DNA from: Monocercomonoides exilis PA203
Lineage: Eukaryota > Protista > Preaxostyla
Length of the DNA stretch: 64,000 nt
NCBI GenBank assembly: GCA_001643675.2
Contig: LSRY02000008.1
Location: 1,612,001-1,676,000 of the forward strand
Direction of reading: 5' to 3'
Position numbers and translations under genes: made by a program. The notes under the pieces are model-generated. The model saw only the letters and a list, made by a program, of their open reading frames with translations. It searched no databases and was not told the DNA's origin. This document shows, piece by piece, positions 6,422 through 42,822 of this stretch; position 1 is the stretch's first letter, and every line of letters begins with the position of its first letter.

Positions 6422-9400
6422 AGAAATTTCTTTCCTTCAACGTTTCCTTCTCTTCCCCTTCATTCAGAAAAATTTTGCAAAATATCCCAATAAGTTTCAG
6501 TATCTTTTTTTGTCTTCGCTCGCCTCTTCTGATAGGAATGTTATCGCCTAAATCTTTTTTTTTTCCTTCTGTTTCCGTTTTCTTCCTTCTTTCCATATTC
6601 CATTCGCATTCATCCCTTTTGGATATTCATGCAAAACTCCCTGTCATCATAAAAAAAAAAAAGAAAAAAAATATTTTAAATGTAATACAAAATATCACAA
6701 ACCAGTACCATTTTCCTTTCGCAATCTGCTTCCTTTTCTTCATCTTCATATCCTTCTTGACTTCCTGTCACATTTCTTCTTCAGCCATTTCCTCAATTTT
6801 CCGATTACTCTTTTCTGTCGCTTCCCCTCCTTCTTTTTCAAATCGCTGCACAAATCTTCAAAGCCCTCCTCTTCCATTCATTTCATTGATTTCCTCCAGC
6901 TCATTCTTCGATATTCTCAAAAAAATTGTGTTGCCTGCTTTCTCAAAAGCATCAAATGTGCTCTTTTCCCCATGTTCATTCATTGCCTGAAAATGTCCTT
7001 CCATAAATCTTAATCTCTCAAAATAAATAAAAATAAATATGTGAAAAATTGGAGAAAAAAAATTAATACAAAACAAACTCTAAAAATATGTTTATTGCCA
7101 ATCTTCACACACTTTCTTCTTCTTCTTCGAGTGCCTCTCAAAATATTGTTCTTTTCTGCCAACAAAACTCGCCTTTTTTGCTTCTGCTGCCTATCTCAAC
7201 ATCAATGAAATCAATTCTGTTCTGCTTCCAAAAACTTGCTTTATTTCCAATTCTTGGCACTGATTCCACTCGAATAATACACAAATAATAAAAATGCTTC
7301 AATATAATTTTAATGAAGATGAGGATGATGATGACAGCGATGATGGCAATGACAGAGATGAAGATGATAAAGGTGGTGAATGCGATGTTATTTTCAAGTT
7401 TGAATACTATACATCTTCTGTCAGAAGATATTCTCAGCATCACTGCCTCGTTCTCTGCTCTTGTGAATAACGTTTCAATGATAGAAGGCTGAAGACAAAG
7501 GTCAAACGATAAAAGTCCATTTTGCCTGTAATTTGCCTCCAGCTGCCGTATTACGCAAAACTGTCCGTTTTTCTCGTTTTTTCGCCTCTCAACCCAAGCA
7601 ATGAAAAGCAGTTCCATCGCTCCCCTTGGTCCGTAAAATCAATGTCTTGCCCTTCTTCTCCAAAGAAAGGCTCCTTGTTCTGTCCAAACTGATTTCAATC
7701 TCCTGTTTCAGTTATTTGCCCCAATCTTTCCAACAAACTTAAAAATGAAAATGTCTTCTTCCTCTTTTTAAAAAACGCTCCCTTTTCATTGAATTTGGTT
7801 ATTCTTCCTTTTTGCCTTGGATATCTTCCAACCCCGTTGATTTCTGCTCCATTAAATTTCATTTTTCATCACATTTCTATCGATTGTGCATGTTGAGTTA
7901 ATAACAAGTCACATAAACATTTATGATAAAATACATTCTGGCTCTAATATATTTGTAACATAACATTTGTCTCGCTTCCTCGCTGTTCTGCTCTGCATGG
8001 AATAAATTGTTCATTTTAAATAAGTTGTCTGAATCACGACTTTGGAGAGGTTACGGATGATAACATCTTCACAATCAACAGAACAATAAAAATTACATAC
8101 ATTGAAAATTCATCATTTCCATCGAAAATATTGTTGCTCCACAGCCATTCATCAATCAATATGAACAATTTCATCTTTCATCAAGCAAACATTCTTTTGT
8201 AATACCCCACATTTTCACTGGAAATATATCATTTAGTCAACCTGTCTTTGTTTAAACCTCGGAATCTGACCCCGTTGACAGTTTCTGAGCATTTGACATT
8301 GCTTGATCATGTTCCATAACGAATAAGAGCCACAAAAGAAAAGAAAGTCCTACTCGATGTGCCGTGGCTGAATGGGCATATGAAGACAATGCGATAACAA
8401 TAGGATGGATTTGTGGTATGGGGTGAAGGAGTTGAGTTCTTGGAGGAGGCAGGGTTTAGAGAGGGAATGGAACGATTAAAGGATGGTTTTTTTGGGGGGA
8501 GAAAGAGGTGTTTTTGGGAGGTTTAAGAGGCATAATGGATGTGTAGGAGATGGATAGGGATAGACTTTTGTGGGGTAGTTTTTTCGATTTTTGTGAGTTG
8601 GAAGGTGTGGAAGTTGCGTTTATTATTTGAGAAAAGGAATTTGCTGTTGAGGAGGTGGGATAAGAGGGAACAGAGGGGAAGAAGATGAGTGGGGCTAATG
8701 GAATATATTTATTGGAGGAGAGGATTAGAGATGGAAAGGAAATGGAGAGATATGTGGAGGAGGTGTTTTTTTTTTTCAAATGCAGAGAGAGAGGGGGTTC
8801 ATATGGGGCAGGGCAAGAGGGAGAGTATTTGCGAACTGATGTTTGATAAGAAAGAGAAGTGGGGTTGAAGAAAAAAAAGTGAAGAAAAATTTTCTTCATA
8901 TTTTTATATAATTTATTTTGCGAACCGTTTGGCCGCGCCTCTCATTTGCAGGGCAAGTGTTGGAGGCGGAGGTGGAGAAAGACAGGAAGAAGGAACATCA
9001 GCGCTGGCACTTTGCATTGGAGGTGTGGAGACAGAGGAAGATGAAGGGCTGACAATGAGAGAGTATTTTGCAATGGAAAGAGACAGAAAAAGGATGGAGG
9101 TATTTATTTATTTATTTATTTTTTTGGTTGGAAGAAGGGCATGGGAGATGAGGAGACAGGGATTGTGATATTTGGTGGAGGGGCGTTGATATTTTAGAGG
9201 AAATGGAGAGAAGAAGAAGGCAATACAGCGGAAAGGGATGGGAAGGGGTTATTCTGATGGAATTATCTTCTTTTCCAGTTTTTTACAGAACGGAGTTTGT
9301 GAAGTTATTCAAGTGGAAATAAGACCAAGGATTGGAAGTAAATGATTTTTAGGAGTAGAAAGGAGCGAAGAAGGGGCAGATGGGCTTTGTTCGGTGAAAG

Positions 9401-9772
9401 AAGCGATATTTTGAAAGGTGCAAGAGGAAGAAGAGGAAGATACGATGAGAAAAGAAAATTCGAGCCAGAAGGTTAATATTCATGTTTATATCTTCAATGA
9501 GTCTGCGGATTGATTTTGATATATTTTTTAATATTTGAGCATTTTAATCATCAGAAGATTCTCTTGTTGTTCATCGGGCATTGGGATGGTTTGAGGAAAC
9601 ATGAACAGCCGGATTTGGATTTGCCCTTTTGAAAGAGAGGCTTTTTCCAAATATTCCAGAGAGAGAAAGAGAGAAGGAAAGAGAGAGAGAGAGAAAGAGA
9701 AAGAGAAAGAGAGAAATAAAAATAAAAATAAAGATAGAGCAGAAGATGGTAAATGAGGAATTATTTTGAGGA

Positions 9773-10075
9773 ATGTGTTTGATAGAAAAGGTGAAGGCCA
9801 TTTTCAGCAAAATGGAATTTGTATTTGAAGATTCTATTTGGATGTCTGGAGGAGATTCATTTTATAAGGAGTGGGGGAGGCAAAAGAGGGAGAGAAAAGA
9901 GAGCAGAGGGATAGGGATATTGAGGAACAACACATTGAAGAGATGGATGCGATGGGAGTGAAGGCAGAAAGGAACAACAATTGGGGAGGAGCAAAAAGAA
10001 GAAGAAGAAGAAGAAGAAGAAGAAGAAGAAGAAGAAGGGATAGTCAGCGAAGTGTGACCATTGTTAAAGGTGTGG
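9773..10075 (+). pseudogene. Decayed 5' fragment of a family cassette (mirror copy at ~24475-24773, minus strand)
   Basis: Translation GIGILRNNTLKRWMRWE matches SIGVLRNITLKGWRRGGE of cassettes D and I. It is broken by stops and followed by microsatellites, with no core. Confidence 0.55.
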
Positions 10076-10089
10076 ATTTGTTTATTTTG

Positions 10090-10204
10090 TTTTTCATCAT
10101 ATTTTTCATCATATTTTTTCATCATATTTTTCATCATATTTTTTCATCATATTTTTTCATCATATTTTTTCATCATATTTTTTCATCATATTTTTCATCA
10201 TATT
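10090..10204 (+). repeat. 13-bp minisatellite (TTTTTTCATCATA) x ~9
   Basis: Read directly from the sequence; units are 12-13 bp here and a regular 13 bp in the mirror copy. Confidence 0.95.
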
Positions 10205-10540
10205 TGTTATTTTTCCACCTCCACCTCCATCGAATTAAGAATTTTGCTTGGATATATTCTGTGAATGAATGAATGAATATGGAACATGGAAAGATTGCCA
10301 TTTGAAGGGTATTTTTGGAATGATGGCTGAGATGAATGAATGAAAGGGGTGAATAGAGGAGTGAGCAGGTGCAAAAATTGAAAGGGAGAAAAGAGGAGGG
10401 ATTTGAAGATTTGAACAGCGATTTGAAAAGAAGGAGTCGAAGCGATCGAATAAAGATCGGAAAACCGATGAAGCAATAAAAGGAGACATTTGGCTCAAGA
10501 TTGAGAAGAGGAAAAGAAATTTTATGAGGATGATGAGAAA

Positions 10541-11392
10541 AGAAGGGGAAGAAGAAGGGGAAGAAGAGGGGGAAGAAGAAGGGGAAGAAGAGGGGGAAGA
10601 AGAAGGGAAAAAGAAGTGGAAGAAGAAGGGGAAGAAGAAGGGGAAGAAGAAGGGGAAGAAGAGGGGAAGAAGAAGGGGAAGAAGAGGGGGAAAAAGAAGG
10701 GGAAGAAGAAGGGGAAGAAGAGGGGAAGAAGAAGGGGAAGAAGAGGGGGAAGAAGAAGGGGAAGAAGAAGGGGAAGAAGAAGGGGAAGAAGAAGGGGAAA
10801 AAGAAGTGGAAGAAGAAGGAAGAAGAAGGGGAAGAAGAGGGGGAAAAAGAAGGGGAAGAAGAAGGGGAAGAAGAAGGGGAAGAAGAAGGGGAAGAAGAGG
10901 GGGAAGAAGAAGGGGAAGAAGAGGGGGAAGAAGAAGGGGAAGAAGAAGGGGAAAAAGAAGTGGAAGAAGAAGGGGAAGAAGAGGGGAAAAAGAAGGGGAA
11001 GAAGAAGGGGAAGAAGAAGGGGAAGAAGAGGGGGAAGAAGAAGGGGAAGAAGAGGGGGAAGAAGAAGGGGAAGAAGAGGGGGAAGAAGAAGGGGAAGAAG
11101 AAGGGGAAGAAGAAGGGGAAGAAGAGGGGGAAGAAGAAGGGGAAGAAGAGGGGGAAGAAGAAGGGGAAGAAGAGGGGGAAGAAGAAGGGGAAAAGAAGTG
11201 GAAGAAGAAGGGGAAGAAGAAGGGGAAGAAGAAGGGAAAAAGAAGGGGAAGAAGAAGGGGAAAAAGAAGGGGAAAAAGAAGGGGAAGAAGAAGGGGAAGA
11301 AGAAGGGGAAGAAGAGGGGGAAGAAGAGGGGGAAGAAGAAGGGGAAGAAGAAGGGGAAGAAGAAGGGAAGAAGAAGGGAAGAAGAAGGGAAG
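10541..11392 (+). repeat. Polypurine 12-bp minisatellite (GAAGAAGAAGGG)n, ~850 bp
   Basis: Almost pure A/G tract. It produces the EEEG, KKKG and RRRG ORFs in three frames. Confidence 0.97.
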
Positions 11393-11943
11393 ATTGCGAA
11401 AAGTGAATGGTGCTGGTTTTCCGTATGTTTTATATTTAGTTTTAAATATTTTATTTCGAATTAATTTTCATATTTTCTTTCATATGTATATATTATGTGT
11501 ATTTCTTGATATTTAATTTAATATTTCTTCAGTTTTTTATTTCTTTCATATTTTTCTCCCATTTTTTTTTAAAAGATGATAAGATATTTGCTGAAATTTC
11601 AATGGAAATAGATGCGAATGGAATTTTGAAAGAAGGCAAAAGAAGAAAACAGTCGAAAAGAGAGAGATTTTGTTGAATGCGGATAGCGAAGTGCATTGGA
11701 ATGCTGTTTCTGATTGGTGATATTGAAGGGGGAAAATGCTTTTCTATTTTTTAATAAGATTCATTTAAAAAGCAGGATAAGAGAAAGAAGAAATTGGAGC
11801 AAACTTACAGGGATATTTTTTCGAGATTGCGCTCAGAGGCAAGGCAAGCTGATTGGAGGGAAATATCAGAAAATGGCAAATAAGTGAATATGAAGGAAGA
11901 ATTACAGTGAGAGAATCAAGCCCTATTCCTTTCAACTCCCTCA

Positions 11944-13397
11944 ATGCTCCTTGTATCCCTCTCTCACCTGACATTTTTCAATATTTCAACAGCAACATCG
12001 GAATGCTCGCCTTCAACAACTACGTCAACCCAAACCTCGTGTTTTATGAGCAGCTGCTCGTTCTCATCAGTTTGCGACGCATATGATGGCGGAATTGTTC
12101 CTTCTCTGAACAGCCCCTTGGCTTCCTTATCTGTTTCGAACACATCATTCATTGGGTGTTGTCGAACAAAAATGTTGTTTGCGAAGGAACATCAGACAGA
12201 AAGTTGACTCCAGGGAGACAAAACGCAACATTCAATGGAGCAAATTCATTCACTTGGTGCGAATGGAATGGATCAAAGACGACTGGAAACAAAGATGATT
12301 ACGCAGATGAAGCTTCTAACGGTGGAGCAATTCGAATGTTTAACCTCAATTCAGGAGAACTAACAGTTTCTCATTGTGCATTCAACGACTGCTATGCATA
12401 TTATGGCGGAGGCGGAATCATGTGCCGTTCAATCAAGTCAGTTGATATAACAAACAATTTATTCAACGCTTGCAATGCTCAAAACAATGCTGGAGGGGGA
12501 TTGTATGTTGTATTAATTTCATCATGTGTTCGGATCAGCGGATGTGAATTCCAGGATTGTAAAGCAAATGGCGCTGGAGGAGGACTTTATTTAGATAATT
12601 TTTATGTTTCAGGATCAGGATGCATTGGAGCTGAAAATGAAGGTGGGGAGGGTGCATGTGTGTTTGACTGCAGTTTCACTTCATGCTCGCTGTCTGGAAA
12701 TAGTGGCGGAGGGATGTGTTGTCAAAATATCCCTGCGACTCAGTTCAAAATGAGGAGCATTCAGTTTATTTCATGTTCAGCAATGGGATATGGAGGAGGA
12801 TTATATTTTCATCCAAATAAGCAAACAGATCAAAATAATACATTCTATTGTTATTTTTTGTTCTTCCATGAATGCAAGTGCAGAACTACATCCACTCCAT
12901 ATGGGCATGATGTTGAATATGTTGATACTTACGATGTCTATTTGAACTCAGGAAATCCATTTTGCGAATGCTACACCACAAACACGAATGAACAGAGAAT
13001 GTGTTATGCATACAACTACTCGAATGCAAACACCTGGTATTTTCAGTACACAGAAAAGAAGGAATGGCTGAAGGACAAGACGATCTATGTGTCAGCGAAT
13101 GGAAATGATACATCTCCACTTTGTGGGTCAAATGAATCAAATCCATGTCTGACAGTGAAGAAGGCGTTTGAGATGTGTGAGGTGCAGATTAGCTTGGCAA
13201 TCACGCTGATGGAAGGAAATCACACAAGCGAGACAACAACTATTAAGATTGGAGAAAAGAAGATTTCGGTCATTGGGACGGGCAAAGATAAAAGTTCGAT
13301 TGGAACAGGAGCATTTTCATCATCGTTATTTTTTTTCTCTTCCTCTTCTTCGCTTTCTTCGTCATACTCGTCAGTCTTTAAGATTTTGGTTGCATGA
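11944..13397 (+). pseudogene. Cassette C, left-arm copy, split by a 1-bp A-run difference (possible sequencing error)
   Basis: ORFs 11944-12207 plus 12156-13397 equal the intact mirror ORF 21528-22982. The run is A5 at ~12168 versus A6 in the mirror. Confidence 0.8.
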
Positions 13398-14127
13398 ATT
13401 GTTCGAGTGCGAGCGAAGCTGAGATTGGAAATAAGCAGCAATTTTTGGAGCAGAAGAGAAGCAATGCTATTGGCTGTGATACTGGCAGCTGAGACATAGC
13501 AGATGGGTTTTGCAAGCAGAAAGGAGCAATATTTTGAAAGACAAAAGATGATGATGAAGAAGAATATGTAAATGAAGTGTGATTATTTTTGAAGCTCATG
13601 AAATAAAAATGTTTCTTTTTCAATTTTTTCTTTTCAATTTTTCAAATATTTTCTTTTAATGATATTGGAATGTTTGCACAAATTCCCAATGCCAATGCAC
13701 TCGCAAGGAATATGGAAAGATGGCGTTTTGACATTTTTGCTCAGCAAAAGGTTCAACGGTTTTTGTATAGATAAAGGAAAATGCGGGCTCAACAATGGAA
13801 ACGAATAGAAGAGGAGTCCTTTTATTGCTTTGTGAGGCATATAGTGCAGTCATGCCAAAAGAAAAGAAAAAAAGAAAAACTGATGAAATGACAGAAGAAG
13901 GAGTCTGACGAGAGATTGAGAAGAAGAAATATTTTTTGGAACTTCGATTGAAAGAGAAAGTTTTATGAAAATCTGATGAAAGCGAAGAAAGAAGGGAAAG
14001 AGAAGATGGATTATATGATTTTGAGGGATGCTTGAAGAAAAATAGAAAGAAAGAAGAAGTGGAAGAAATATTTATATGAGAGAGTTGTGGAACTCAACTG
14101 TTGAGTTGAAGAGGGCAGGGCTGGTGG

Positions 14128-15858
14128 TTGGGGGTGAGTGGAAGGAAAGGGAGCGTGGTTGTGATGAGGGGGTGTGTTGTGGAGATGGGGAAGGACAATG
14201 AGGGAGGGGCATTTGATCTGAGTGGGAGCATTGGAGTGTTGAGGAACATCACATTGAAAGGGTGGAGAAGAGGGGGTGAGATATACTCGGGAAGGCTGTT
14301 TGGAGGGAAGGGATATGGAGGGGAGAAGGGTGGAAGTGAAGAAAAAGGAGGAGAAGGAGGAGAAAGAGATAGAGGAAAAGGAAGAGAAGGAGATGGATAT
14401 GGAGAAGGCATTGAAGGGAGTATTTCGGTGAGTGAATCACGCTTCTCTTCTTTTTGTGTCTCATCAGCCCCATTCCTTTCATCCCCTTCAATACCCCTTG
14501 TATCCCTCTCTCGCCTGACATTTTTCAACATCTCGACAGCAAATGAGGCATGCTTGCCTTCAACCACTTCCTCATCCCAAACCACTTGTTTTATGAGCAG
14601 CTGCTCCTTTTCATCAGTTTGCGACATATATGATGGCGGAATTGTTCCTTCCCTCAACAACCCCTATGCCTCTCTGACTGCCTCAAACACCTCATTTGTT
14701 GGGTGTTGCAGGACAAGAAATGTTGTTTGCGAAGGAACAAAAACTAATAAGCTGGCTCCAGGAAGACAAAATGAAACATTCAATGGAGCAAATTCATTTA
14801 TTTGGTGTGAATGGAATGGATCGAGGGCAACAGGAGAAAGTGACTCGTATACTGATGGAATATCGAGTGGAGGAGCCATCTGCATGTACAGTCAATCATC
14901 TGCCTCTGTGTCTGTTTCTCATTGTGTGTTTAATGGATGTATTGCACATTATGCTGGAGGAGGAATTAATTGCTTCAATATTTCATCAGTTGAGATTGTG
15001 AACAACACCTTTGATTCTTGTAACGCTCAAAATCGTTATGGTGGTGGAGTATTTGTTTATACGATTTCGTCGTGTGTTCGTATCAGCGGATGTGAATTTC
15101 AGAATTGCAAAACAGTTAATTATGGAGGAGGACTTTATCTTGATAATTTTAATGTTTCAGGAACAGGATGCATTCCAATAGAAAAGGGGGAGAGTGCGTG
15201 TGTTTGACTGTACTTTCACTCTATGTTCAGTCACAAACAATTATGGTGGAGGTATGTATTGCGTCACTATTCCTAATCCATTTAAAATGAGGAGCATTCA
15301 GTTTATTTCGTGCTCAGCATCTGCACATGGTGGAGGTTTGAGATTGCACCCAAACAGACCAACAGCACCTGATGATGGAATCTATTGTTATTTCCTTTTT
15401 TCCACGAGTGCAAATGTTCTAACAACCCCTCTTACGGCCATGATGTAATGTATCATGATTACTACAGTGTCTTTTTATCTTCTAATAATCCATTCTATGA
15501 ATGTTACACCACAAACACAGATGACAAGAGAGTGTGCTACGGATATAATTATGCAAATGCAAGTGCTTGGACATATCAGCACACGGAAAAGAAGGATTGG
15601 CTGAAGGACAAGACAATTTATGTGTCAGTGAGCGGGAATGACCTGAATAAGCTGTGTGGAGCAAATGAAACATTTCCTTGTCTGACAGTGAAGAAAGCGT
15701 TTGAGATGAGTAAGATACAAATTAGTTTGACAATCACACTGATGGACGGGAATCATCAAAGCAAACTTATTGCGATTAAGGCTAGTGATGCCAAAAATAA
15801 GTGGATGAAAAGCGTATTCGCTTTTATTGTAATGGCGATCATTCCAATTCTTACATAA
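14128..15858 (+). pseudogene. Cassette D, left-arm copy, split by simple-repeat indels (possible sequencing errors)
   Basis: ORFs 14128-15207, 15194-15448 and 15385-15858 together match the mirror ORF 19052-20791, apart from a 6-bp in-frame loss at ~15185. The frameshifts are -2 in a GT repeat (~15200) and -1 in a T run (~15398). Confidence 0.8.
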
Positions 15859-16852
15859 AGTCAGTTTCTTGCTCCTTTTTGTTGAATATCTTTTCTTTCA
15901 CAAACATGGAAAGAATATGGAATGTTTCTGGCTGAGAAGATGACGGAGCAACTTTAAAAAATTAAAAGATGAAGATGAAATGAAAATGACCCTCAGAGAA
16001 GATAGCTTCAAAGCACGTTCGGCTAGTGAATCTTAATCAAGAAAAAAGGAAAAGATAACACGCTTACAAAGGAAATGTTGAATGTGTTTGAGTATAATAA
16101 AAATTAACAAGCGATTTTTTTTATTTTTTTATGATTTACATATCCATTCATTTATATCGAAAGGCATCTTCATTACGCGTTTTCTTCAACAGCTACGTCC
16201 TGATATCCATATTTTTTTATATTTTTAAGATGGCGTAAGTGGTTTGCTTCTGAACGTAGAATTTAGAGTTATGATTTCTGTTTGGCCAATAAAGCAGTTA
16301 GAAAAAAATCAAAAATTTTTCGAGGTCATCATTTGTTTGAACTGAAGAGAGAAAGTTTAATGATAAAAAATTAATTTCAACTTACTCCCTTTTGATTTTG
16401 CAAATGTGTTGAAAAGATAAAGGAAAATGCTCGAAAGTCTGAAACAATAGCATTTTAACTTTAAGTTCATACTATAAATAAAATTCAATCTTAAAAAATA
16501 ATTATAAATTAAATATTAAATATTAAGCCTGTGTTGCAAGTGTAAAAATCCCTCACCACATCCGTCAAATTGAATTATTCTCGTTAAAGAAAAAAATATT
16601 TTGAAAAATCAAACAATAAAAATATATGATAAGCTTTCTTTAAATTCTTCGTCATGTTTATTTTGTTCCGGATCAATGTTTTCTGCAATGACAGAACTGA
16701 CAGCAGTTAACTTCATTGATAATTTTTGATCAAAACAATCCAATTATGTCATTACGGTCAATTTCCCATAATCGGTTACAAATCAATATTTTATTTTTAA
16801 TTTTTATGAAAAAAAGTAATATTTATTATTTTTGATCGTTTCAATTGTTTTT

Positions 16853-17108
16853 ATGGCAAATGGAGAAGATCCTGGTACCACATGATCAACGCCCTTAATT
16901 AATTAAATTTTGTTATTTATTCTTATTGTGCTCATAAGGTTTTAGGGTTTTGACGAATTAAACAAGTTCATATTGGATATTGTGATGGTTTATGGTTTTA
17001 CCGAGCAAAATAAGGGTTAGGGTTAACCCTAGAAGAGATTTTCAAAATGAAAATGATATAAATAGTGGGTAGGATCACCTTGGTACCAGGATCTACTCCA
17101 CTGGCCGT
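16853..17108. mobile_element. 256-bp imperfect-TIR element containing telomere-like repeats (mirror copy ~17787-18042)
   Basis: Left end atggcaaatggagaagatcctggtaccacatgatc versus rc of right end acggccagtggagtagatcctggtaccaaggtgatc. TTTT on both flanks; internal gggttagggttaaccctag. Confidence 0.65.
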
Positions 17109-17139
17109 TTTTATTATTAATAAAATTTATTTATTAATA

Positions 17140-17755
17140 CAGTCTAAATCGGATATAATCACATCGGTTTTTGCACAACTTTTTGTGATTATATCCGATT
17201 GTGATAATATGCGATGCTGCTTAACACAGAAAAAAATAAAAATTAATTACAGATATCGCATAAAATACCCGACATCGCACAAAATACCGGACAAGATCGA
17301 TTTCACAACAACTGCAAGAGGAATAATTCTGACAATTTTCCTCAAAATACATCTCTTCAATACAAACTCAATTGATAAATGTGACTTTCTAAACAGCTTC
17401 ATTTGTGCTCAGAAAAATTAAATGTCGAAAACTCGGAAAAACTCAAAATCCAATTTCTCCGAGATTTTTTAAATAATTTTCTGTTAGCACAAATGGAGCT
17501 ATTTTGAAAGTCTCGTTCATCAAATGAGTTTGTATTGATGAGATGTATTTTGAGGAAAATTGTCAGAATTATTCCTCTTGCAGTTGTTGTGAAATCGATC
17601 TTGTCCGGTATTTTGTGCGATGTCGGGTATTTTATGCGATATCTGTAATTAATTTTTATTTTTTTCTGTGTTAAGCAGCATCGCATATTATCACAATCGG
17701 ATATAATCACAAAAAGTTGTGCAAAAACCGATGTGATTATATCCGATTTAGACTG
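17140..17755. mobile_element. pogo/Tigger-like non-autonomous TIR element forming the centre of P1 (616 bp)
   Basis: TA|CAGTCTAAATCGGATATAATCACATCGG terminus (TA-CAGT ends are typical of pogo/Tc1-type elements) and a perfect 17-bp subterminal inverted repeat 17147-17163/17184-17200. End symmetry is not independent evidence, because the element lies on the palindrome axis. Confidence 0.55.
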
Positions 17756-19051
17756 TATTAATAAATAAATTTTATTAATAATAAAAACGGCCAGTGGAGT
17801 AGATCCTGGTACCAAGGTGATCCTACCCACTATTTATATCATTTTCATTTTGAAAATCTCTTCTAGGGTTAACCCTAACCCTTATTTTGCTCGGTAAAAC
17901 CATAAACCATCACAATATCCAATATGAACTTGTTTAATTCGTCAAAACCCTAAAACCTTATGAGCACAATAAGAATAAATAACAAAATTTAATTAATTAA
18001 GGGCGTTGATCATGTGGTACCAGGATCTTCTCCATTTGCCATAAAAACAATTGAAACGATCAAAAATAATAAATATTACTTTTTTTCATAAAAATTAAAA
18101 ATAAAATATTGATTTGTAACCGATTATGGGAAATTGACCGTAATGACATAATTGGATTGTTTTGATCAAAAATTATCAATGAAGTTAACTGCTGTCAGTT
18201 CTGTCATTGCAGAAAACATTGATCCGGAACAAAATAAACATGACGAAGAATTTAAAGAAAGCTTATCATATATTTTTATTGTTTGATTTTTCAAAATATT
18301 TTTTTTTTCTTTAACGAGAATAATTCAATTTGACGGATGTGGTGAGGGATTTTTACACTTGCAACACAGGCTTAATATTTAATATTTAATTTATAATTAT
18401 TTTTTTTTAAGATTGAATTTTATTTATAGTATGAACTTAAAGTTAAAATGCTATTGTTTCAGACTTTCGAGCATTTTCCTTTATCTTTTTCAACACATTT
18501 GCAAAATCAAAAGGGAGTAAGTTGAAATTAATTTTTTTATCATTAAACTTTCTCTCTTCAGTTCAAACAAATGATGACCTCGAAAAAATTTTTTTGATTT
18601 TTTTTTCTAACTGCTTTATTGGCCAAACAGAAATCATAACTCTAAATTCTACGTTCAGAAGCAAACCACTTACGCCATCTTAAAAATATAAAAAAAAATA
18701 TGGATATCAGGACGTAGCTGTTGAAGAAAACGCGTAATGAAGATGCCTTTCGATATAAATGAATGGATATGTAAATCATAAAAAAATAAAAAAAATCGCT
18801 TGTTAATTTTTATTATACTCAAACACATTCAACATTTCCTTTGTAAGCGTGTTATCTTTTTCTTTTTTCTTGATTAAGATTCACTAGCCGAACGTGCTTT
18901 GAAGCTATCTTCTCTGAGGGTCATTTTCATTTCATCTTCATCTTTTAATTTTTTAAAGTTGCTCCGTCATCTTCTCAGCCAGAAACATTCCATATTCTTT
19001 CCATGTTTGTGAAAGAAAAGATATTCAACAAAAAGGAGCAAGAAACTGACT

Positions 19052-20791
19052 TTATGTAAGAATTGGAATGATCGCCATTACAATAAAAGCGAATACGCTT
19101 TTCATCCACTTATTTTTGGCATCACTAGCCTTAATCGCAATAAGTTTGCTTTGATGATTCCCGTCCATCAGTGTGATTGTCAAACTAATTTGTATCTTAC
19201 TCATCTCAAACGCTTTCTTCACTGTCAGACAAGGAAATGTTTCATTTGCTCCACACAGCTTATTCAGGTCATTCCCGCTCACTGACACATAAATTGTCTT
19301 GTCCTTCAGCCAATCCTTCTTTTCCGTGTGCTGATATGTCCAAGCACTTGCATTTGCATAATTATATCCGTAGCACACTCTCTTGTCATCTGTGTTTGTG
19401 GTGTAACATTCATAGAATGGATTATTAGAAGATAAAAAGACACTGTAGTAATCATGATACATTACATCATGGCCGTAAGAGGGGTTGTTAGAACATTTGC
19501 ACTCGTGGAAAAAAAGGAAATAACAATAGATTCCATCATCAGGTGCTGTTGGTCTGTTTGGGTGCAATCTCAAACCTCCACCATGTGCAGATGCTGAGCA
19601 CGAAATAAACTGAATGCTCCTCATTTTAAATGGATTAGGAATAGTGACGCAATACATACCTCCACCATAATTGTTTGTGACTGAACATAGAGTGAAAGTA
19701 CAGTCAAACACACACGCACTCTCCCCTTCCCCTTTTTCTATTGGAATGCATCCTGTTCCTGAAACATTAAAATTATCAAGATAAAGTCCTCCTCCATAAT
19801 TAACTGTTTTGCAATTCTGAAATTCACATCCGCTGATACGAACACACGACGAAATCGTATAAACAAATACTCCACCACCATAACGATTTTGAGCGTTACA
19901 AGAATCAAAGGTGTTGTTCACAATCTCAACTGATGAAATATTGAAGCAATTAATTCCTCCTCCAGCATAATGTGCAATACATCCATTAAACACACAATGA
20001 GAAACAGACACAGAGGCAGATGATTGACTGTACATGCAGATGGCTCCTCCACTCGATATTCCATCAGTATACGAGTCACTTTCTCCTGTTGCCCTCGATC
20101 CATTCCATTCACACCAAATAAATGAATTTGCTCCATTGAATGTTTCATTTTGTCTTCCTGGAGCCAGCTTATTAGTTTTTGTTCCTTCGCAAACAACATT
20201 TCTTGTCCTGCAACACCCAACAAATGAGGTGTTTGAGGCAGTCAGAGAGGCATAGGGGTTGTTGAGGGAAGGAACAATTCCGCCATCATATATGTCGCAA
20301 ACTGATGAAAAGGAGCAGCTGCTCATAAAACAAGTGGTTTGGGATGAGGAAGTGGTTGAAGGCAAGCATGCCTCATTTGCTGTCGAGATGTTGAAAAATG
20401 TCAGGCGAGAGAGGGATACAAGGGGTATTGAAGGGGATGAAAGGAATGGGGCTGATGAGACACAAAAAGAAGAGAAGCGTGATTCACTCACCGAAATACT
20501 CCCTTCAATGCCTTCTCCATATCCATCTCCTTCTCTTCCTTTTCCTCTATCTCTTTCTCCTCCTTCTCCTCCTTTTTCTTCACTTCCGCCCTTCTCCCCT
20601 CCATATCCCTTCCCTCCAAACAGCCTTCCCGAGTATATCTCACCCCCTCTTCTCCACCCTTTCAATGTGATGTTCCTCAACACTCCAATGCTCCCACTCA
20701 GATCAAATGCCCCTCCCTCATTGTCCTTCCCCATCTCCACAACACACCCCCTCACCACAACCACGCTCCCTTTCCTTCCACTCACCCCCAA
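19052..20791 (-). CDS. Cassette D, right-arm copy, intact; ends in a hydrophobic tail
   Basis: 579-aa ORF with Gly/Glu-rich N-terminal region, full core, and C-terminus KWMKSVFAFIVMAIIPILT. Confidence 0.8.
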   Translation of the reverse strand: MGVSGRKGSVVVVRGCVVEMGKDNEGGAFDLSGSIGVLRNITLKGWRRGGEIYSGRLFGGKGYGGEKGGSEEKGGEGGERDRGKGREGDGYGEGIEGSISVSESRFSSFCVSSAPFLSSPSIPLVSLSRLTFFNISTANEACLPSTTSSSQTTCFMSSCSFSSVCDIYDGGIVPSLNNPYASLTASNTSFVGCCRTRNVVCEGTKTNKLAPGRQNETFNGANSFIWCEWNGSRATGESDSYTDGISSGGAICMYSQSSASVSVSHCVFNGCIAHYAGGGINCFNISSVEIVNNTFDSCNAQNRYGGGVFVYTISSCVRISGCEFQNCKTVNYGGGLYLDNFNVSGTGCIPIEKGEGESACVFDCTFTLCSVTNNYGGGMYCVTIPNPFKMRSIQFISCSASAHGGGLRLHPNRPTAPDDGIYCYFLFFHECKCSNNPSYGHDVMYHDYYSVFLSSNNPFYECYTTNTDDKRVCYGYNYANASAWTYQHTEKKDWLKDKTIYVSVSGNDLNKLCGANETFPCLTVKKAFEMSKIQISLTITLMDGNHQSKLIAIKASDAKNKWMKSVFAFIVMAIIPILT

Positions 20792-21527
20792 CCACCAGCC
20801 CTGCCCTCTTCAACTCAACAGTTGAGTTCCACAACTCTCTCATATAAATATTTCTTCCACTTCTTCTTTCTTTCTATTTTTCTTCAAGCATCCCTCAAAA
20901 TCATATAATCCATCTTCTCTTTCCCTTCTTTCTTCGCTTTCATCAGATTTTCATAAAACTTTCTCTTTCAATCGAAGTTCCAAAAAAAATATTTCTTCTT
21001 CTCAATCTCTCGTCAGACTCCTTCTTCTGTCATTTCATCAGTTTTTTTCTTTTTTTTTCTTTTCTTTTGGCATGACTGCACTATATGCCTCACAAAGCAA
21101 TAAAAGGACTCCTCTTCTATTCGTTTCCATTGTTGAGCCCGCATTTTCCTTTATCTATACAAAAACCGTTGAACCTTTTGCTGAGCAAAAATGTCAAAAC
21201 GCCATCTTTCCATATTCCTTGCGAGTGCATTGGCATTGGGAATTTGTGCAAACATTCCAATATCATTAAAAGAAAATATTTGAAAAATTGAAAAAGAAAA
21301 ATTGAAAAAGAAACATTTTTATTTCATGAGCTTCAAAAATAATCACACTTCATTTACATATTCTTCTTCATCATCATCTTTTGTCTTTCAAAATATTGCT
21401 CCTTTCTGCTTGCAAAACCCATCTGCTATGTCTCAGCTGCCAGTATCACAGCCAATAGCATTGCTTCTCTTCTGCTCCAAAAATTGCTGCTTATTTCCAA
21501 TCTCAGCTTCGCTCGCACTCGAACAAT

Positions 21528-22982
21528 TCATGCAACCAAAATCTTAAAGACTGACGAGTATGACGAAGAAAGCGAAGAAGAGGAAGAGAAAAAAAATAAC
21601 GATGATGAAAATGCTCCTGTTCCAATCGAACTTTTATCTTTGCCCGTCCCAATGACCGAAATCTTCTTTTCTCCAATCTTAATAGTTGTTGTCTCGCTTG
21701 TGTGATTTCCTTCCATCAGCGTGATTGCCAAGCTAATCTGCACCTCACACATCTCAAACGCCTTCTTCACTGTCAGACATGGATTTGATTCATTTGACCC
21801 ACAAAGTGGAGATGTATCATTTCCATTCGCTGACACATAGATCGTCTTGTCCTTCAGCCATTCCTTCTTTTCTGTGTACTGAAAATACCAGGTGTTTGCA
21901 TTCGAGTAGTTGTATGCATAACACATTCTCTGTTCATTCGTGTTTGTGGTGTAGCATTCGCAAAATGGATTTCCTGAGTTCAAATAGACATCGTAAGTAT
22001 CAACATATTCAACATCATGCCCATATGGAGTGGATGTAGTTCTGCACTTGCATTCATGGAAGAACAAAAAATAACAATAGAATGTATTATTTTGATCTGT
22101 TTGCTTATTTGGATGAAAATATAATCCTCCTCCATATCCCATTGCTGAACATGAAATAAACTGAATGCTCCTCATTTTGAACTGAGTCGCAGGGATATTT
22201 TGACAACACATCCCTCCGCCACTATTTCCAGACAGCGAGCATGAAGTGAAACTGCAGTCAAACACACATGCACCCTCCCCACCTTCATTTTCAGCTCCAA
22301 TGCATCCTGATCCTGAAACATAAAAATTATCTAAATAAAGTCCTCCTCCAGCGCCATTTGCTTTACAATCCTGGAATTCACATCCGCTGATCCGAACACA
22401 TGATGAAATTAATACAACATACAATCCCCCTCCAGCATTGTTTTGAGCATTGCAAGCGTTGAATAAATTGTTTGTTATATCAACTGACTTGATTGAACGG
22501 CACATGATTCCGCCTCCGCCATAATATGCATAGCAGTCGTTGAATGCACAATGAGAAACTGTTAGTTCTCCTGAATTGAGGTTAAACATTCGAATTGCTC
22601 CACCGTTAGAAGCTTCATCTGCGTAATCATCTTTGTTTCCAGTCGTCTTTGATCCATTCCATTCGCACCAAGTGAATGAATTTGCTCCATTGAATGTTGC
22701 GTTTTGTCTCCCTGGAGTCAACTTTCTGTCTGATGTTCCTTCGCAAACAACATTTTTTGTTCGACAACACCCAATGAATGATGTGTTCGAAACAGATAAG
22801 GAAGCCAAGGGGCTGTTCAGAGAAGGAACAATTCCGCCATCATATGCGTCGCAAACTGATGAGAACGAGCAGCTGCTCATAAAACACGAGGTTTGGGTTG
22901 ACGTAGTTGTTGAAGGCGAGCATTCCGATGTTGCTGTTGAAATATTGAAAAATGTCAGGTGAGAGAGGGATACAAGGAGCAT
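21528..22982 (-). CDS. Cassette C, right-arm copy, intact core
   Basis: 484-aa ORF with all family motifs, ending in a Ser/Phe low-complexity tail. Confidence 0.8.
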   Translation of the reverse strand: MLLVSLSHLTFFNISTATSECSPSTTTSTQTSCFMSSCSFSSVCDAYDGGIVPSLNSPLASLSVSNTSFIGCCRTKNVVCEGTSDRKLTPGRQNATFNGANSFTWCEWNGSKTTGNKDDYADEASNGGAIRMFNLNSGELTVSHCAFNDCYAYYGGGGIMCRSIKSVDITNNLFNACNAQNNAGGGLYVVLISSCVRISGCEFQDCKANGAGGGLYLDNFYVSGSGCIGAENEGGEGACVFDCSFTSCSLSGNSGGGMCCQNIPATQFKMRSIQFISCSAMGYGGGLYFHPNKQTDQNNTFYCYFLFFHECKCRTTSTPYGHDVEYVDTYDVYLNSGNPFCECYTTNTNEQRMCYAYNYSNANTWYFQYTEKKEWLKDKTIYVSANGNDTSPLCGSNESNPCLTVKKAFEMCEVQISLAITLMEGNHTSETTTIKIGEKKISVIGTGKDKSSIGTGAFSSSLFFFSSSSSLSSSYSSVFKILVA

Positions 22983-23534
22983 TGAGGGAGTTGAAAGGAA
23001 TAGGGCTTGATTCTCTCACTGTAATTCTTCCTTCATATTCACTTATTTGCCATTTTCTGATATTTCCCTCCAATCAGCTTGCCTTGCCTCTGAGCGCAAT
23101 CTCGAAAAAATATCCCTGTAAGTTTGCTCCAATTTCTTCTTTCTCTTATCCTGCTTTTTAAATGAATCTTATTAAAAAATAGAAAAGCATTTTCCCCCTT
23201 CAATATCACCAATCAGAAACAGCATTCCAATGCACTTCGCTATCCGCATTCAACAAAATCTCTCTCTTTTTCGACTGTTTTCTTCTTTTGCCTTCTTTCA
23301 AAATTCCATTCGCATCTATTTCCATTGAAATTTCAGCAAATATCTTATCATCTTTTAAAAAAAAATGGGAGAAAAATATGAAAGAAATAAAAAACTGAAG
23401 AAATATTAAATTAAATATCAAGAAATACACATAATATATACATATGAAAGAAAATATGAAAATTAATTCGAAATAAAATATTTAAAACTAAATATAAAAC
23501 ATACGGAAAACCAGCACCATTCACTTTTCGCAAT

Positions 23535-24002
23535 CTTCCCCTTCTTCTTCCCCTTCTTCTTCCCCTTCTTCTTCCCCTTCTTCTTCCCCTTCTTCTTCCC
23601 CTTCTTCTTCCCCTTCTTCTTCCCCTTCTTCTTCCCCTTCTTCTTCCCCTTCTTCTTCCCCCTCTTCTTCCCCTTCTTCTTCCCCTTCTTCTTCCCCTTC
23701 TTCTTCCCCTTCTTCTTCCCCCTCTTCTTCCCCTTCTTCTTCCCCCTCTTCTTCCCCTTCTTCTTCCCCTTCTTCTTCCCCTTCTTCTTCCCCCTCTTCT
23801 TCCCCTTCTTCTTCCCCCTCTTCTTCCCCTTCTTCTTCCCCTTCTTTTTCCCCCTCTTCTTCCCCTTCTTCTTCCCCCTCTTCTTCCCCTTCTTCTTCCC
23901 CTTCTTCTTCCCCTTCTTCTTCCACTTCTTTTTCCCCTTCTTCTTCCCCCTCTTCTTCCACTTCTTCTTCCCCCTCTTCTTCCCCTTCTTCTTCCCCTTC
24001 TT
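23535..24002 (-). repeat. Mirror copy of the (GAAGAAGAAGGG)n minisatellite, ~470 bp
   Basis: (CCCTTCTTCTTC)n tract, in frame throughout (EEEG ORF 23521-24018), about 380 bp shorter than the left-arm copy. Confidence 0.97.
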
Positions 24003-24340
24003 TTCTCATCATCCTCATAAAATTTCTTTTCCTCTTCTCAATCTTGAGCCAAATGTCTCCTTTTATTGCTTCATCGGTTTTCCGATCTTTATTCGATCGC
24101 TTCGACTCCTTCTTTTCAAATCGCTGTTCAAATCTTCAAATCCCTCCTCTTTTCTCCCTTTCAATTTTTGCACCTGCTCACTCCTCTATTCACCCCTTTC
24201 ATTCATTCATCTCAGCCATCATTCCAAAAAATACCCTTCAAATGGCAATCTTTCCATGTTCCATATTCATTCATTCATTCACAGAATATATCCAAGCAAA
24301 ATTCTTAATTCGATGGAGGTGGAGGTGGAAAAATAACAAA

Positions 24341-24456
24341 TATGATGAAAAAATATGATGAAAAAATATGATGAAAAAATATGATGAAAAAATATGATGA
24401 AAAAATATGATGAAAAAATATGATGAAAAAATATGATGAAAAAATATGATGAAAAA
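24341..24456 (-). repeat. 13-bp minisatellite, mirror copy (TATGATGAAAAAA x9)
   Basis: Read directly from the sequence. Confidence 0.95.
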
Positions 24457-27400
24457 CAAAATAAACAAATCCACACCTTTAACAATGGTCACACTTCGCT
24501 GACTATCCCTTCTTCTTCTTCTTCTTCTTCTTCTTCTTCTTCTTCTTCTTTTTGCTCCTCCCCAATTGTTGTTCCTTTCTGCCTTCACTCCCATCGCATC
24601 CATCTCTTCAATGTGTTGTTCCTCAATATCCCTATCCCTCTGCTCTCTTTTCTCTCCCTCTTTTGCCTCCCCCACTCCTTATAAAATGAATCTCCTCCAG
24701 ACATCCAAATAGAATCTTCAAATACAAATTCCATTTTGCTGAAAATGGCCTTCACCTTTTCTATCAAACACATTCCTCAAAATAATTCCTCATTTACCAT
24801 CTTCTGCTCTATCTTTATTTTTATTTTTATTTCTCTCTTTCTCTTTCTCTTTCTCTCTCTCTCTCTTTCCTTCTCTCTTTCTCTCTCTGGAATATTTGGA
24901 AAAAGCCTCTCTTTCAAAAGGGCAAATCCAAATCCGGCTGTTCATGTTTCCTCAAACCATCCCAATGCCCGATGAACAACAAGAGAATCTTCTGATGATT
25001 AAAATGCTCAAATATTAAAAAATATATCAAAATCAATCCGCAGACTCATTGAAGATATAAACATGAATATTAACCTTCTGGCTCGAATTTTCTTTTCTCA
25101 TCGTATCTTCCTCTTCTTCCTCTTGCACCTTTCAAAATATCGCTTCTTTCACCGAACAAAGCCCATCTGCCCCTTCTTCGCTCCTTTCTACTCCTAAAAA
25201 TCATTTACTTCCAATCCTTGGTCTTATTTCCACTTGAATAACTTCACAAACTCCGTTCTGTAAAAAACTGGAAAAGAAGATAATTCCATCAGAATAACCC
25301 CTTCCCATCCCTTTCCGCTGTATTGCCTTCTTCTTCTCTCCATTTCCTCTAAAATATCAACGCCCCTCCACCAAATATCACAATCCCTGTCTCCTCATCT
25401 CCCATGCCCTTCTTCCAACCAATAAAAAACAAATACCTCCATCCTTTTTCTGTCTCTTTCCATTGCAAAACACCCTCTCGTAGTCAGCCCTTCATCTTCC
25501 TCTGTCTCCACACCTCCAATGCAAAGTGCCAGCGCTGATGTTCCTTCTTCCTGTCTTTCTCCACCTCCGCCTCCAACACTTGCCCTGCAAATGAGAGGCG
25601 CGGCCAAACGGTTCGCAAAATAAATAATATAAAAATTTGAAGAATATTTTTCTTCACTTTTTTTTCTTCAATCCCACTTTTCCTTCTTATCAAACATAAG
25701 CCCACAAAATCTCTTCTCTTTGTTCCGCCTCATATGCCTCCCTCCTCTCTCTCCCTGCATTTGAAAAAAAAAAATATCCCTTTTCCATATCTCTCCATCT
25801 CTTATCCTCCTCTCCAATAAATATATTCCATTCACTCCACCTTTCTTGTTTTCCCTCTTATCCCACCTCCTCAACAGCAAATTCCTTTTCTCAAATAATA
25901 AACGCAACTTCCACACCTTCCAACTCACAAAAATCGAAAAAACTACCCCACAAAAGTCTATCCCTATCCATCTCCCACGTATCCATTTTGTCTCTTAAAC
26001 CTCCCAAAAACACCTCTTTCTCCCCCCAAAAAAATATCCTTTAATCGTTCCATTCCCTCTCTAAACCCTGCCTCCTCCAAGAACTCAACTCCTTCACCCC
26101 ACACCATAAATCCATCCTATTGTTATCGCATTGTCTTCATATGCCCATTCAGCCACGGCACATCGAGTAGGACTTTCTTTTCTTTTGTGGCTCTTATTCG
26201 TTATGGAACATGATCAAGCAATGTCAAATGCTCAGAAACTGTCAACGGGGTCAGATTCCGAGGTTTAAACAAAGACAGGTTGACCAAGTGAAATATTTCC
26301 AGTGAAAATGTGGGGTATTACAAAAGAATGTTTGCTTGATGAAAGATGAAATTGTTCATATTGATTGATGAATGGCTGTGGAGCAACAATATTTTCGATG
26401 GAAATGATGAATTTTCAATGTATGTAATTTTTATTGTTCTGTTGATTGTGAAGATGTTATCATCCGTAACCTCTCCAAAGTCGTGATTCAGACAACTTAT
26501 TTAAAATGAACAATTTATTCCATGCAGAGCAGAACAGCGAGGAAGCGAGACAAATGTTATGTTACAAATATATTAGAGCCAGAATGTATTTTATCATAAA
26601 TGTTTATGTGACTTGTTATTAACTCAACATGCACAATCGATAGAAATGTGATGAAAAATGAAATTTAATGGAGCAGAAATCAACGGGGTTGGAAGATATC
26701 CAAGGCAAAAAGGAAGAATAACCAAATTCAATGAAAAGGGAGCGTTTTTTAAAAAGAGGAAGAAGACATTTTCATTTTTAAGTTTGTTGGAAAGATTGGG
26801 GCAAATAACTGAAACAGGAGATTGAAATCAGTTTGGACAGAACAATGCGCCTTTCTTTGGAGAAGAAGGACAAGACATTGATTTTACGGACTGAGGAGAG
26901 GGATGGAACTGCTTTTCATTGCTTGGCTTGAGAGGCGAAAAAACGAGAAAAACAGACAGTTTTGCGTAATACGGCAGCTGGAGGCAAATTACAGGCAAAA
27001 TGGACTTTTATCGTTTGACCTTTGTCTTCAGCCTTCTATCATTGAAACGTTATTCACAAGAGCAGAGAACGAGGTTGCGATGCTGAGAATATCTTCTGAC
27101 AGAAGATACATAGTATTCAAACTTGAAAATAACATCGCATTCACCATCTTTATCGTCTTTATCTCTGTCATTGCCATCACCGCTGTCATTATCTTCTTCA
27201 TCTTCATTAAAATTATATTGAAGCATTTTTATTATTTGTGTATTATTCGAGCGGAATCAGTGCTCAGGATTGGAAATAAGCAAGTTGTTGGAAGCAGAAC
27301 AGAATCACTTTCATTGATGTTGAGATTGGCAGCAGAAGCAAAAAAGGCGAGTTTTGTTGGCAGAAAAGAACAATATTTTGAGAGGCACTCGAAGAAGAAG

Positions 27401-28099
27401 AAGAAAGTGTGTGAAGATTGGCAATAAATATATTTTTAGAGTTTGCTTTGTATTAATTTTTTTTCTCAAATTTTTCACATATTTATTTTTTTTATTTTTT
27501 TGAGGGATTAAGATTTATGGAAGGACATTTTCAGGCAATGAATGAACATGGGGAAAAGAGCACATTTGATGCTTTTGAGAAAGCAGGCAACACAATTTTT
27601 TTGAGAATATCGAAGAATGAGCTGGAGGAAATCAATGAAATGAATGGAAGAGGAGGGATTTGAAGATTTATGTTGAATTTTGAAAAAGAAGAAGGGGAAG
27701 CGACGGAAAAGAATAATCGGAAAATTGAAGAAATGGCTGAAGAAGAAATGTGACAGGAAGTCAAGAAGGAAATGAAGATGAAGAAAAGGAAGCAGATTGC
27801 GAAAGGAAAATGGTACTGGTTTGTGATATTTTGTATTACATTTAAAATATTTTTTTTCTTTTTTTTTTTTATGATGACAGGGAGTTTTGCATGAATATCC
27901 AAAAGGGATGAATGCGAATGGAATATGGAAAGAAGGAAGAAAACGGAAACAGAAGGAAAAAAAAAAGATTTAGGCGATAACATTCCTATCAGAAGAGGCG
28001 AGCGAAGACAAAAAAAGATACTGAAACTTATTGGGATATTTTGCAAAATTTTTCTGAATGAAGGGGAAGAGAAGGAAACGTTGAAGGAAAGAAATTTCT

Positions 28100-41599: not shown

Positions 41600-42586
41600 G
41601 AAGTGAATTTGTGATGAGTATTTATAAAATACGACTTTTTATCTAAAAGTTGAATTTTTAGATGTTGTTAGCTGCAGTTTTATTACGAATTGTCAAAGCC
41701 AGTAGCATTAAAAACTAACGAATAGATAATATGATTATAATATTGACATTGATGATTGGCGAATTTGAGATATGGTAAAATTAGTTAATTTTAATATTTA
41801 CAGTTTGTATTGTACAATTTTAACGGAACACTGAAAATCAACAGAAATAATTTATTATTTTTGTTGGGTAGGGTGAGTAATTTATTTGACCCTATTTTTT
41901 TTTCTCGTATATCTTTAAACAGTGCTTAAACATGATAAATATAATTTTAAAGTAATGAACGAAATAATTAAAAGATTAAACATTGATATTTTTAGCATGT
42001 AGTTTCTTTAGGAGAACCAATAAAATTGTAAATTTATTTGATTTTTTTATTAGTTAGCATTCTGCGCATGCATTCATATTCCGTATTAATGATGAAATTG
42101 AATTTTTTTTTTATCTTTTGACATTTTTAGTGTTTTCCTCAAAAGAAAAAAATGCCACTTTTTGAAAAATTTCATATATTTTGAAGCTTATATTTTTTTA
42201 CTGATTTAAAAAGTTTTTAGGCTGTTTTATTGACTTAAAATGGATGTTTGCTTTTCGTTAGTGTTCAAAATTGCTGATGATACGCAAAAAATTATTCGAA
42301 ACGAGAATTTTTCCACTTAAAATAATAATTGTTTAAAACCTTTCAAAATTTTGTTCACTGTCTCATGAAAAATTGTAAAAACAGATTTTTTTTATTCTTT
42401 TTGTTTTTAAACAGCATTAACATAAACTTTGTGGACGGATAAAAAATTTTTGAAAATTTTCATTTTTTTCGTGGAAAAAATTTTTTTCTCCAATAATTTT
42501 TTCTAATGAAATTGTGTGAAATTTGGGTGCATATTTGCTTATTTGAAAAAGCCCATGCTCTGTTCCAAACATTAACTGTTAATATA

Positions 42587-42822
42587 TGGATGATTATTTT
42601 TAATTCCATATTATCTCTAATAATAATATCGGTTTGAGAATTCACTTTGAATATTGATAAATGAACACTGAAAAGTGAAAAGGATTATTAAAGACATCAT
42701 CATCTTAATTTCAGCTTCGACATTAATTTTTTTTTAAAGTTGTTAAAAATCAACAACTTGATTGCAAAATCTCTTCCCAATGACAAACAATTGCTGAAAA
42801 GTCTACTACCCAAAAATATATT
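42587..42822. mobile_element. Degenerate copy of the ~257-bp MITE family straddling the P3 arm/spacer boundary (mirror ~43258-43471)
   Basis: TIR-like start tatatggatgattatttttaattccatatt. The stretch tcggtttgagaattcactttgaatattgataaatgaacactgaaaagtga matches ~2010-2059 (tcggtttgaatatttgttttgagtattcataaatgaacactaaaaagtga). Confidence 0.65.

Follow-up and report, generated by a model that had tools for sequence, protein, structure and literature searches.

The stretch of DNA analysed here (the window) is 64 kb long, has a GC content of 36% and contains large inverted repeats chained along its length, with axes near positions 1148, 17447, 30930 and 43030 that we refer to as palindromes P0, P1, P2 and P3, respectively. 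Comparison of the window with itself revealed chained and overlapping arms of 1-12 kb and no recent triplicated segment. GC skew, evaluated across the whole window, flips sign at each axis and midway between axes, tracking gene orientation. Among the palindrome cores no homology was detected between C1, C2 and the rest, Rfam yielded 0 matches in the window, and the telomere hexamer TTAGGG was found nowhere in it as a tandem repeat.

The long ORFs of the window belong to one Cys-rich family and point towards the AT-rich axes. Those relatives that have names are Monocercomonoides exilis proteins without a characterised function (159 matches, the best 120 of 159 at 55-76% identity); what the arms carry is an expanded Monocercomonoides gene family. 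The ORFs of this family nearest to the P1 axis lie at 14110-15858 on the plus strand and, in mirror image, at 19052-20809 on the minus strand, forming a tail-to-tail pair defined as ORFs only. Pfam returned 0 families for 17 window ORFs; among 46 family members it recognised 4 families, each in a single protein, one of these being Beta_helix (E 0.008). A PDB sequence search returned 0 matches. A structure model of a family protein (mean pLDDT 60) has an all-strand core at about residues 93-394, for which Foldseek found no match at E<=0.001 and weak rows that were mostly parallel beta-helix proteins. We take these predictions as a hint that the fold is probably a parallel beta-helix.

Evaluating the P1 arms further, we found 11 substitutions and 13 small indels between the inner arms (10919-24002) across the 5962 bp of 11394-17355 (0.185% substitutions), which leaves these arms >99% identical around an unconverted centre. 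The outer left arm (6100-10539, partner 24003-28421, with weaker similarity to 5005/29513) is instead a mosaic of identical and diverged tracts. Here we counted 116 substitutions in 4409 columns (ts/tv 78/38), with identical runs of 1416, 553 and 448 bp that were as clumped in 0 of 5000 permutations, and with divergence per 250-bp bin ranging over 0-12.4% (4-12% in the diverged tracts). This pattern, in which conversion is read from one sequence, fits the arms of an older palindrome that would have been homogenised tract by tract through arm-to-arm conversion. A 12-bp tandem array at 10540-11393 / 23534-24002, which counts 72 copies in one P1 arm and 39 in its partner, is seen as the step between the inner and outer arms in the self-comparison. 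All 13 of the P1 arm indels (11655-16589) shorten the same arm, and 9 of the 11 one-base indels in P3 (33534-42042) shorten or alter one arm. These indels fall at homopolymer-rich sites, some break the ORFs of one arm only (e.g., 14110-15858 versus 19052-20809), and they are probably residual assembly errors. A 915-nt contig from one of four assembled runs (X2) equals 18317-19231 without difference at a depth of 224.5, roughly twice that of other single-locus contigs (60-118), and this doubled depth is a hint of two real arms.

The P1 axis lies between 17447 and 17448 (axis sum 34895). No arm difference occurs over 16590-17355 and the first mismatch is at 17356/17539, and thus the preliminary description was right that the arms are essentially identical up to 17355/17540. 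It had further described the 184-bp core (17356-17539) as self-complementary with mismatches increasing inward, and this is borne out by 68 of 92 ungapped mirror pairs (24 mismatched) as compared with 26.6 +/- 4.4 in dinucleotide shuffles (0/1000 reach 68), by a single-strand DNA fold at z = -12.3, and by mismatches that rise from 0/106 (17250-17355) through 8/54 (17356-17409) to 16/38 (17410-17447; Fisher p 1.2e-4 and 4.2e-3). The 54-nt core comparison that it quoted is correct, and the shuffle check that it named places core self-similarity above shuffled sequence at both P1 and P0 (each 0/1000). A smooth decay of the mismatch profile was preferred over a single step, by only ~7 BIC units. 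As had also been described, a 6-bp stem CTCGGA/TCCGAG sits on the exact axis (17432-17463; 17432-37/17458-63) around a 20-nt loop, within which symmetry is at chance (115/1000 shuffles). In MAFFT register the core differences are 24 substitutions and no indel; the arms, by contrast, have homopolymer indels.

The core is the un-homogenised interior of a larger unit, namely a 396-bp element at 17250-17645 whose centre coincides exactly with the P1 axis. It has ends CAG...CTG, a TA on each side, no coding capacity and a high copy number. To evaluate its copies, contigs assembled from four runs (from one sample at most) were compared with 17340-19400 at 85% likeness. In the four runs the summed contig depth of the element was 5 to 3343 times as high as in the unique arm bin 18444-18512 (depth not being equivalent to copy number), and the innermost P1 core bin stood at 5- to 155-fold arm depth and is therefore common to many other loci. 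The stretch that is repeated genome-wide comprises the P1 core and its flanks to ~17760. At the right end, where this was examined, other copies match as far as the TA at 17646-47, beyond which come dissimilar AT-rich flanks, with loose ends behind 17647 in 28 and 21 contigs (agreement 0.44-0.49). Four X2 contigs of single-locus depth match the left half and then the right half on one strand around a different interior (skips of 72, 97, 97 and 109), and because they join both halves in this way the other copies are foldbacks too. The two ORFs of the element overlap, encode 118 and 143 aa and have no Pfam match. A 19-bp tandem lies in the element's end (17255-17293), and loose ends behind 17621 suggest many element copies with only one 19-bp unit.

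The element is therefore short and non-coding, with terminal inverted repeats and dispersed copies that share fixed ends and have unlike flanks; on these testable features it is a MITE, and we refer to it as a MITE-like foldback. The TA at 17248-17249 (mirrored at 17646-17647), which is kept in other copies, is a candidate target duplication, with the reservation that the right flank at P1 is a mirror copy. A TA target duplication together with CAG ends is characteristic of the Tc1/mariner superfamily, and by these general end and TA rules a Tc1/mariner-type assignment is likely. A literature search for a cognate transposase gave only a Merlin survey, and a Merlin-like identity was rejected, as Merlin elements are described there with GG ends and 8-9-bp duplications (PMC8101967). 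The Merlin elements that this survey describes from the genus Monocercomonoides likewise have ends that differ from those of the 396-bp element (PMC8101967). That the core is part of a family of dispersed repeats had not been seen in the preliminary description, and this membership accounts for much of the P1 gradient.

The surroundings of the element are themselves repetitive. Positions 17140-17247 on the plus strand are the end of another TA|CAG repeat of high copy number, the second repeat, and are mirrored at 17648-17755 in place of its usual continuation. The 396-bp element appears to have inserted in this end of the second repeat. Depth is high over 17685-17753, loose ends lie behind 17758/17759, and before 17647 there is a common different continuation in 10 X2 contigs (agreement 0.85), which are other copies of the second repeat. 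A 16-nt motif from the usual continuation had 0 matches in the window; at P1 that continuation is missing and its mirror image stands instead, a picture that an insertion into an already existing palindrome would yield as well. The second repeat contains a small internal palindrome at 17147-17200. A third short element at 16857-17104, with 26-nt inverted ends at 88%, is mirrored at ~17791-18038 and is moderately repeated (raised depth over 17823-18029).

The other copies served as an outgroup for the letters of the element, using 40 listed variant sites of 232 rows, 16 of them within the element. All 12 of the listed core sites where P1 departs from the family majority fall on mismatched pairs (48/184 positions; P 3e-8), and at 10 of these 12, 5 per side, the family carries the letter found in the other half (binomial p 5e-4 versus 1/3 and 0.02 versus 1/2), a pattern that is partly built in when one consensus covers both halves. 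As far as these letters go, this shows that where the element halves agree, they agree with the family. The remaining 14 of the 24 mismatched pairs (3/8 outer, 11/16 inner), which have no row among those listed, may reflect the element family's own asymmetry. In the outer 106 bp (17540-17645, 0/106 mismatches against 17250-17355), 4 of 4 listed sites share one letter in both arms that is unlike other copies, with the other letter holding family shares of 0.85, 0.94, 0.39 and 0.98 in X2; three of the shared letters thus stand against the majority and one is the commoner letter in X2 (other letter 0.39). These letters could be subfamily traits. Given non-family letters common to both halves and 0 mismatches across the outer 106 bp, we infer that one side overwrote the other, and the simplest reading of the element would have its halves age independently at first, with the sequence of one side later replacing that of the other from ~17540 outwards.

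The core is spanned at full identity by no listed contig piece in the four runs, and in X3 and X4 all depth at core sites 17418, 17431, 17483 and 17496 carries another letter than the window. In X2, residual depth of at least 261 remains at each listed core site, above single-locus depth, and is consistent with the window's core letters without proving them. The earlier argument that a fold-back read artefact could not give a mismatched core holds for the arms; some of the core letters could be base errors.

The remaining palindromes differ from P1 in their centres, and an element-centred axis is shown at one of the four axes (P1). P0 (540-1757, axis sum 2297) has a graded core at 1040-1257 in which 69 of 109 mirror pairs match as compared with 34.8 +/- 4.9 in shuffles (0/1000), and mismatches number 10/190 in 850-1039 and 16/69 in 1040-1108, with the innermost 78 bp at chance (176/1000). 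The gradient formerly proposed for P0 over 1040-1257 is thus present, whereas its scattered mismatches begin further out than had been proposed, at 854. The P0 left arm alone holds a decayed 364-bp TIR element (178-541; 47-nt ends, 81% complementary) with a TA on both sides of the filled site and one TA at the empty site in the right arm (1756-1757), and hence a TA duplication. To the left and right of this one-sided insertion the P0 arms remain nearly identical, as expected if conversion skips heterologies. A P0 flank (895-1003, 1294-1402) bears a weak resemblance to the part of the P1 flank that spans the junction of the two repeats, in the same orientation and at a similar distance from the axis, with a right-half score of 52 (0-1/300 shuffles) and a left-half score of 35 that is not significant. 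Homology of the P0 and P1 centres was considered and found to be weak, with a likeness confined to the right half among 35 comparisons. A TA-flanked candidate end occurs at 991/1306 in P0. By analogy, P0 likely works as P1 does.

Any residual symmetry in the P2 and P3 spacers had earlier been called weak, and none was found. The 60-bp P2 spacer (30901-30960) has an abrupt edge and 12 of 30 mirror pairs (119/1000 shuffles), the ~460-bp P3 spacer (42800-43259) has a gapped score reached by 122/400 shuffles, and the arms end abruptly with no symmetry above chance beyond them; P2 and P3 are ordinary spacer palindromes. Over 32455 to ~42800 a single substitution and 11 one-base indels separate the P3 arms, and at ~42800 the arm edge lies inside, and off the centre of, a decayed 262-bp TIR repeat copy (42583-~42845). 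This copy belongs to a decayed ~262-bp element family with 30-41-bp inverted ends that sits in AT-rich regions (1966-2227, 42583-42845 with mirror 43256-43476, 55317-55579, 62675-62937, and an end at 63475-63514), and the P3 spacer may contain one more remnant, in reverse orientation (42845-43046, E 3e-5). A copy of this repeat at the centre of P2 was considered and rejected, there being no significant alignment. A scan of the window for TA-C...G-TA found palindrome-internal pairs only, and such a scan misses decayed elements. The gene common to P2 and P3 is a mosaic, and the paralogue ends at 29300-29680, 32190-32600 and 53460-53860 form a three-way mosaic with tracts in common pairwise, which we read as a probable sign of conversion between genes of neighbouring palindromes.

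Taken together, we consider it reasonably probable that the ends of the MITE primed an inverted duplication and that later conversion kept the arms identical to 17355/17540 while the interior mismatches were kept. The course of events would begin with what is seen at P1 today, a 396-bp repeat with inverted ends and symmetry fading inward, sitting at a TA inside another repeat's end, each half of which would then have gathered private substitutions. A break or stalled fork on one side would have let a single strand fold back on the element's two ends or, with the same product, the element ends of sister chromatids may have crossed over. Trimming of the unmatched tail and copying of the other flank would then have put at least 11 kb of mirror image where the original flank had been. 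Patchy arm conversion may then have erased differences in tracts that end where mismatches become denser in the MITE interior, a pattern that is visible in the arms. On this reading the gradient would be a conversion or priming edge at 17355/17540 plus the element's own fading symmetry. In yeast, fold-back on diverged inverted repeats is described as working to ~25% heterology, with flap trimming and synthesis (PMC10164571), and foldback inversions are described as being primed by hairpins with large loops and imperfect stems (PMC7467729). At the P1 junction a pre-existing inverted repeat of this kind is present. Two of the three origins offered in the preliminary description therefore look right as successive steps: an imperfect inverted repeat that primed fold-back, since the core is the pre-existing imperfect interior of a high-copy MITE-like element, and old palindromes with homogenised arms, as reflected in the patchy homogenisation, the mosaic outer arms and the non-family letters shared across the outer 106 bp.

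The main rival inverts this order, with a spacer-less inverted duplication arising at a self-complementary AT run and the MITE then hitting the central TA, a palindromic target and perhaps an extruded hairpin tip, and stabilising the palindrome before conversion advanced over its outer 106 bp. If the element is taken out together with one TA, a perfect palindrome centred on TA does remain, the end product is the same as with the element coming first, and the unconverted outer-arm bins reach 12.4%, near the 15% of the outer core. The insertion would nevertheless have to hit one TA of 121 in one intergenic half, unless hairpin tips are preferred, and a perfect multi-kb palindrome would have to persist until then, in spite of the instability described for such structures (PMC10766186); we therefore regard this order as unlikely. 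A further alternative gives the repeat family no role and has an old palindrome, perfect at first, simply decay at a tip that conversion does not reach; it may well describe P0, and it agrees with the slightly better fit of smooth decay over steps and with the age and conversion recorded in the mosaic outer arms. As an account of P1 it is a slim prospect, since even the innermost bin recurs at many loci (depth 5- to 155-fold that of the arm) and the ends are the same in other copies. Alternative transposition of cut-and-paste elements yields inverted duplications, and exact centring would be explained if one element end had been cut on one chromatid and joined to the same-side flank of its sister, with conversion over the outer 106 bp following later. 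DNA transposons make up 3.72 Mb of the published M. exilis assembly (PMC8767320), which also speaks for such an event. The identity edge, however, would be expected at the element end (17645) and is observed 106 bp inside, and no cognate transposase was identified, making this origin quite unlikely.

We also weighed whether base-calling failure at the inverted junction had put errors in the core, or polishing had evened out the arms. Nanopore accuracy is described as falling after inverted-duplication junctions (PMC7229812), and the published assembly is nanopore-based, with its authors noting uneven polishing of multi-copy parts (PMC8767320). The one-sidedness of the arm indels (13/13) and the lack of the core letters in X3 and X4 point the same way. 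An artefact is nonetheless very unlikely, because the core differs by 24 substitutions and no indel, unlike the homopolymer indels of the arms, because X2 shows the residual depth given above (261 or more) wherever a core site is listed and its arm contig stands at ~2x single-locus depth, and because an outer-arm mosaic with ts/tv 78/38 is impossible from a fold-back read; the repeat nature of the element is, moreover, independent of exact core letters. The third origin offered previously, concatemer junctions of incompletely paired, poxvirus-like flip/flop hairpin telomeres, shares with the cores only their AT-rich and mismatched look, and we give it almost no credence. Such ends would be terminal with an identical junction per end. 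What the window holds are four different axes within 64 kb, all of them internal, with cores that show no homology to one another. Host genes surround them on a contig of 1.96 Mb, the arms fade outward into diverging chromosomal paralogues, and there are no telomere arrays or tandem TTAGGG.

Each ingredient of this arrangement is known from other systems. Human Made1 is described as a Tc1/mariner-type palindromic MITE (PMC1784062), and the P1 element resembles MITEs of this type in being short, non-coding, hairpin-forming and dispersed in many copies, with long inverted ends and TA beside them. It differs in being 396 bp and symmetric over almost its whole length, in having chromosomal flanks mirrored for at least 11 kb, and in that no cognate transposase was found. 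The fold-back inversions described for the yeast Alu-IR system (PMC10164571) and in PMC7467729 have an imperfect inverted repeat at the centre, a perfect copy outside the priming point and a lost original distal flank, the last being a proposal at P1. These are induced, unstable laboratory or tumour rearrangements, whereas P1 is a natural, apparently old and persisting palindrome in which both repeats lie within one small element. The interrupted palindromes described at ODIRA junctions (PMC10766186) are also similar, and the 60-bp P2 spacer is within their 40-80-bp range, but P1 has ~170-bp inverted arms inside the element as opposed to 5-6-bp repeats; neither 5-6-bp inverted repeats split by 40-80 bp nor three identical copies were found there.

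The closest parallels for the arms are conversion palindromes. Those described on the Y chromosome (PMC3723533) share near-identical gene-bearing arms, an unconverted centre and tract-wise homogenisation, and they differ in having arms of ~100 kb, as compared with chained and overlapping arms of 1-12 kb here, and a unique spacer in place of an imperfect inverted repeat. The mosaic patterns of P1, P0 and P2-P3 fit old palindromes with tract-wise conversion, as described for human P6 (PMC3723533), and the same likeness extends to the palindromes that PMC5490193 reports for Folsomia candida and cites for Adineta vaga. The VSP pairs described in Giardia muris (PMC7641422) are also identical inverted pairs of a Cys-rich gene family in a metamonad, head-to-head or tail-to-tail. 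The proteins are unrelated as far as compared (no Pfam match), and the intervening DNA in G. muris holds kinase or ankyrin genes where P1 holds a foldback repeat.

In the published account of the M. exilis genome, 35% of the repeats are unclassified (PMC8767320). The words 'haploid', 'ploidy', 'inverted' and 'tandem' are absent from the article text, and its supplementary repeat tables could name these families (PMC8767320). In the open literature searched, by listings and the opening lines of abstracts, neither palindromes nor these repeats were reported for Monocercomonoides, and no natural gene palindrome was described with a MITE on its axis; each ingredient is known and the combination in a natural locus was not found there. 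Our observations point to an undescribed architecture in this genome, made of chained palindromes and several MITE-like families. More tentatively, and as an idea that we hold to be rather doubtful, foldback MITEs in AT-rich intergenic DNA might nucleate inverted duplication of the beta-helix family genome-wide, with chained palindromes being kept and reshuffled by arm conversion and the gradients recording the order and age of events. The birth of natural gene palindromes is usually hidden because conversion erases its trace, whereas at the P1 axis the founding repeat seems preserved and its sister copies provide an outgroup, such that origin, order and tract ends may be read from the sequence. 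If the genome-wide idea is true, concerted evolution in this protist would be driven by an engine that transposons seed and that resembles the one on Y chromosomes.
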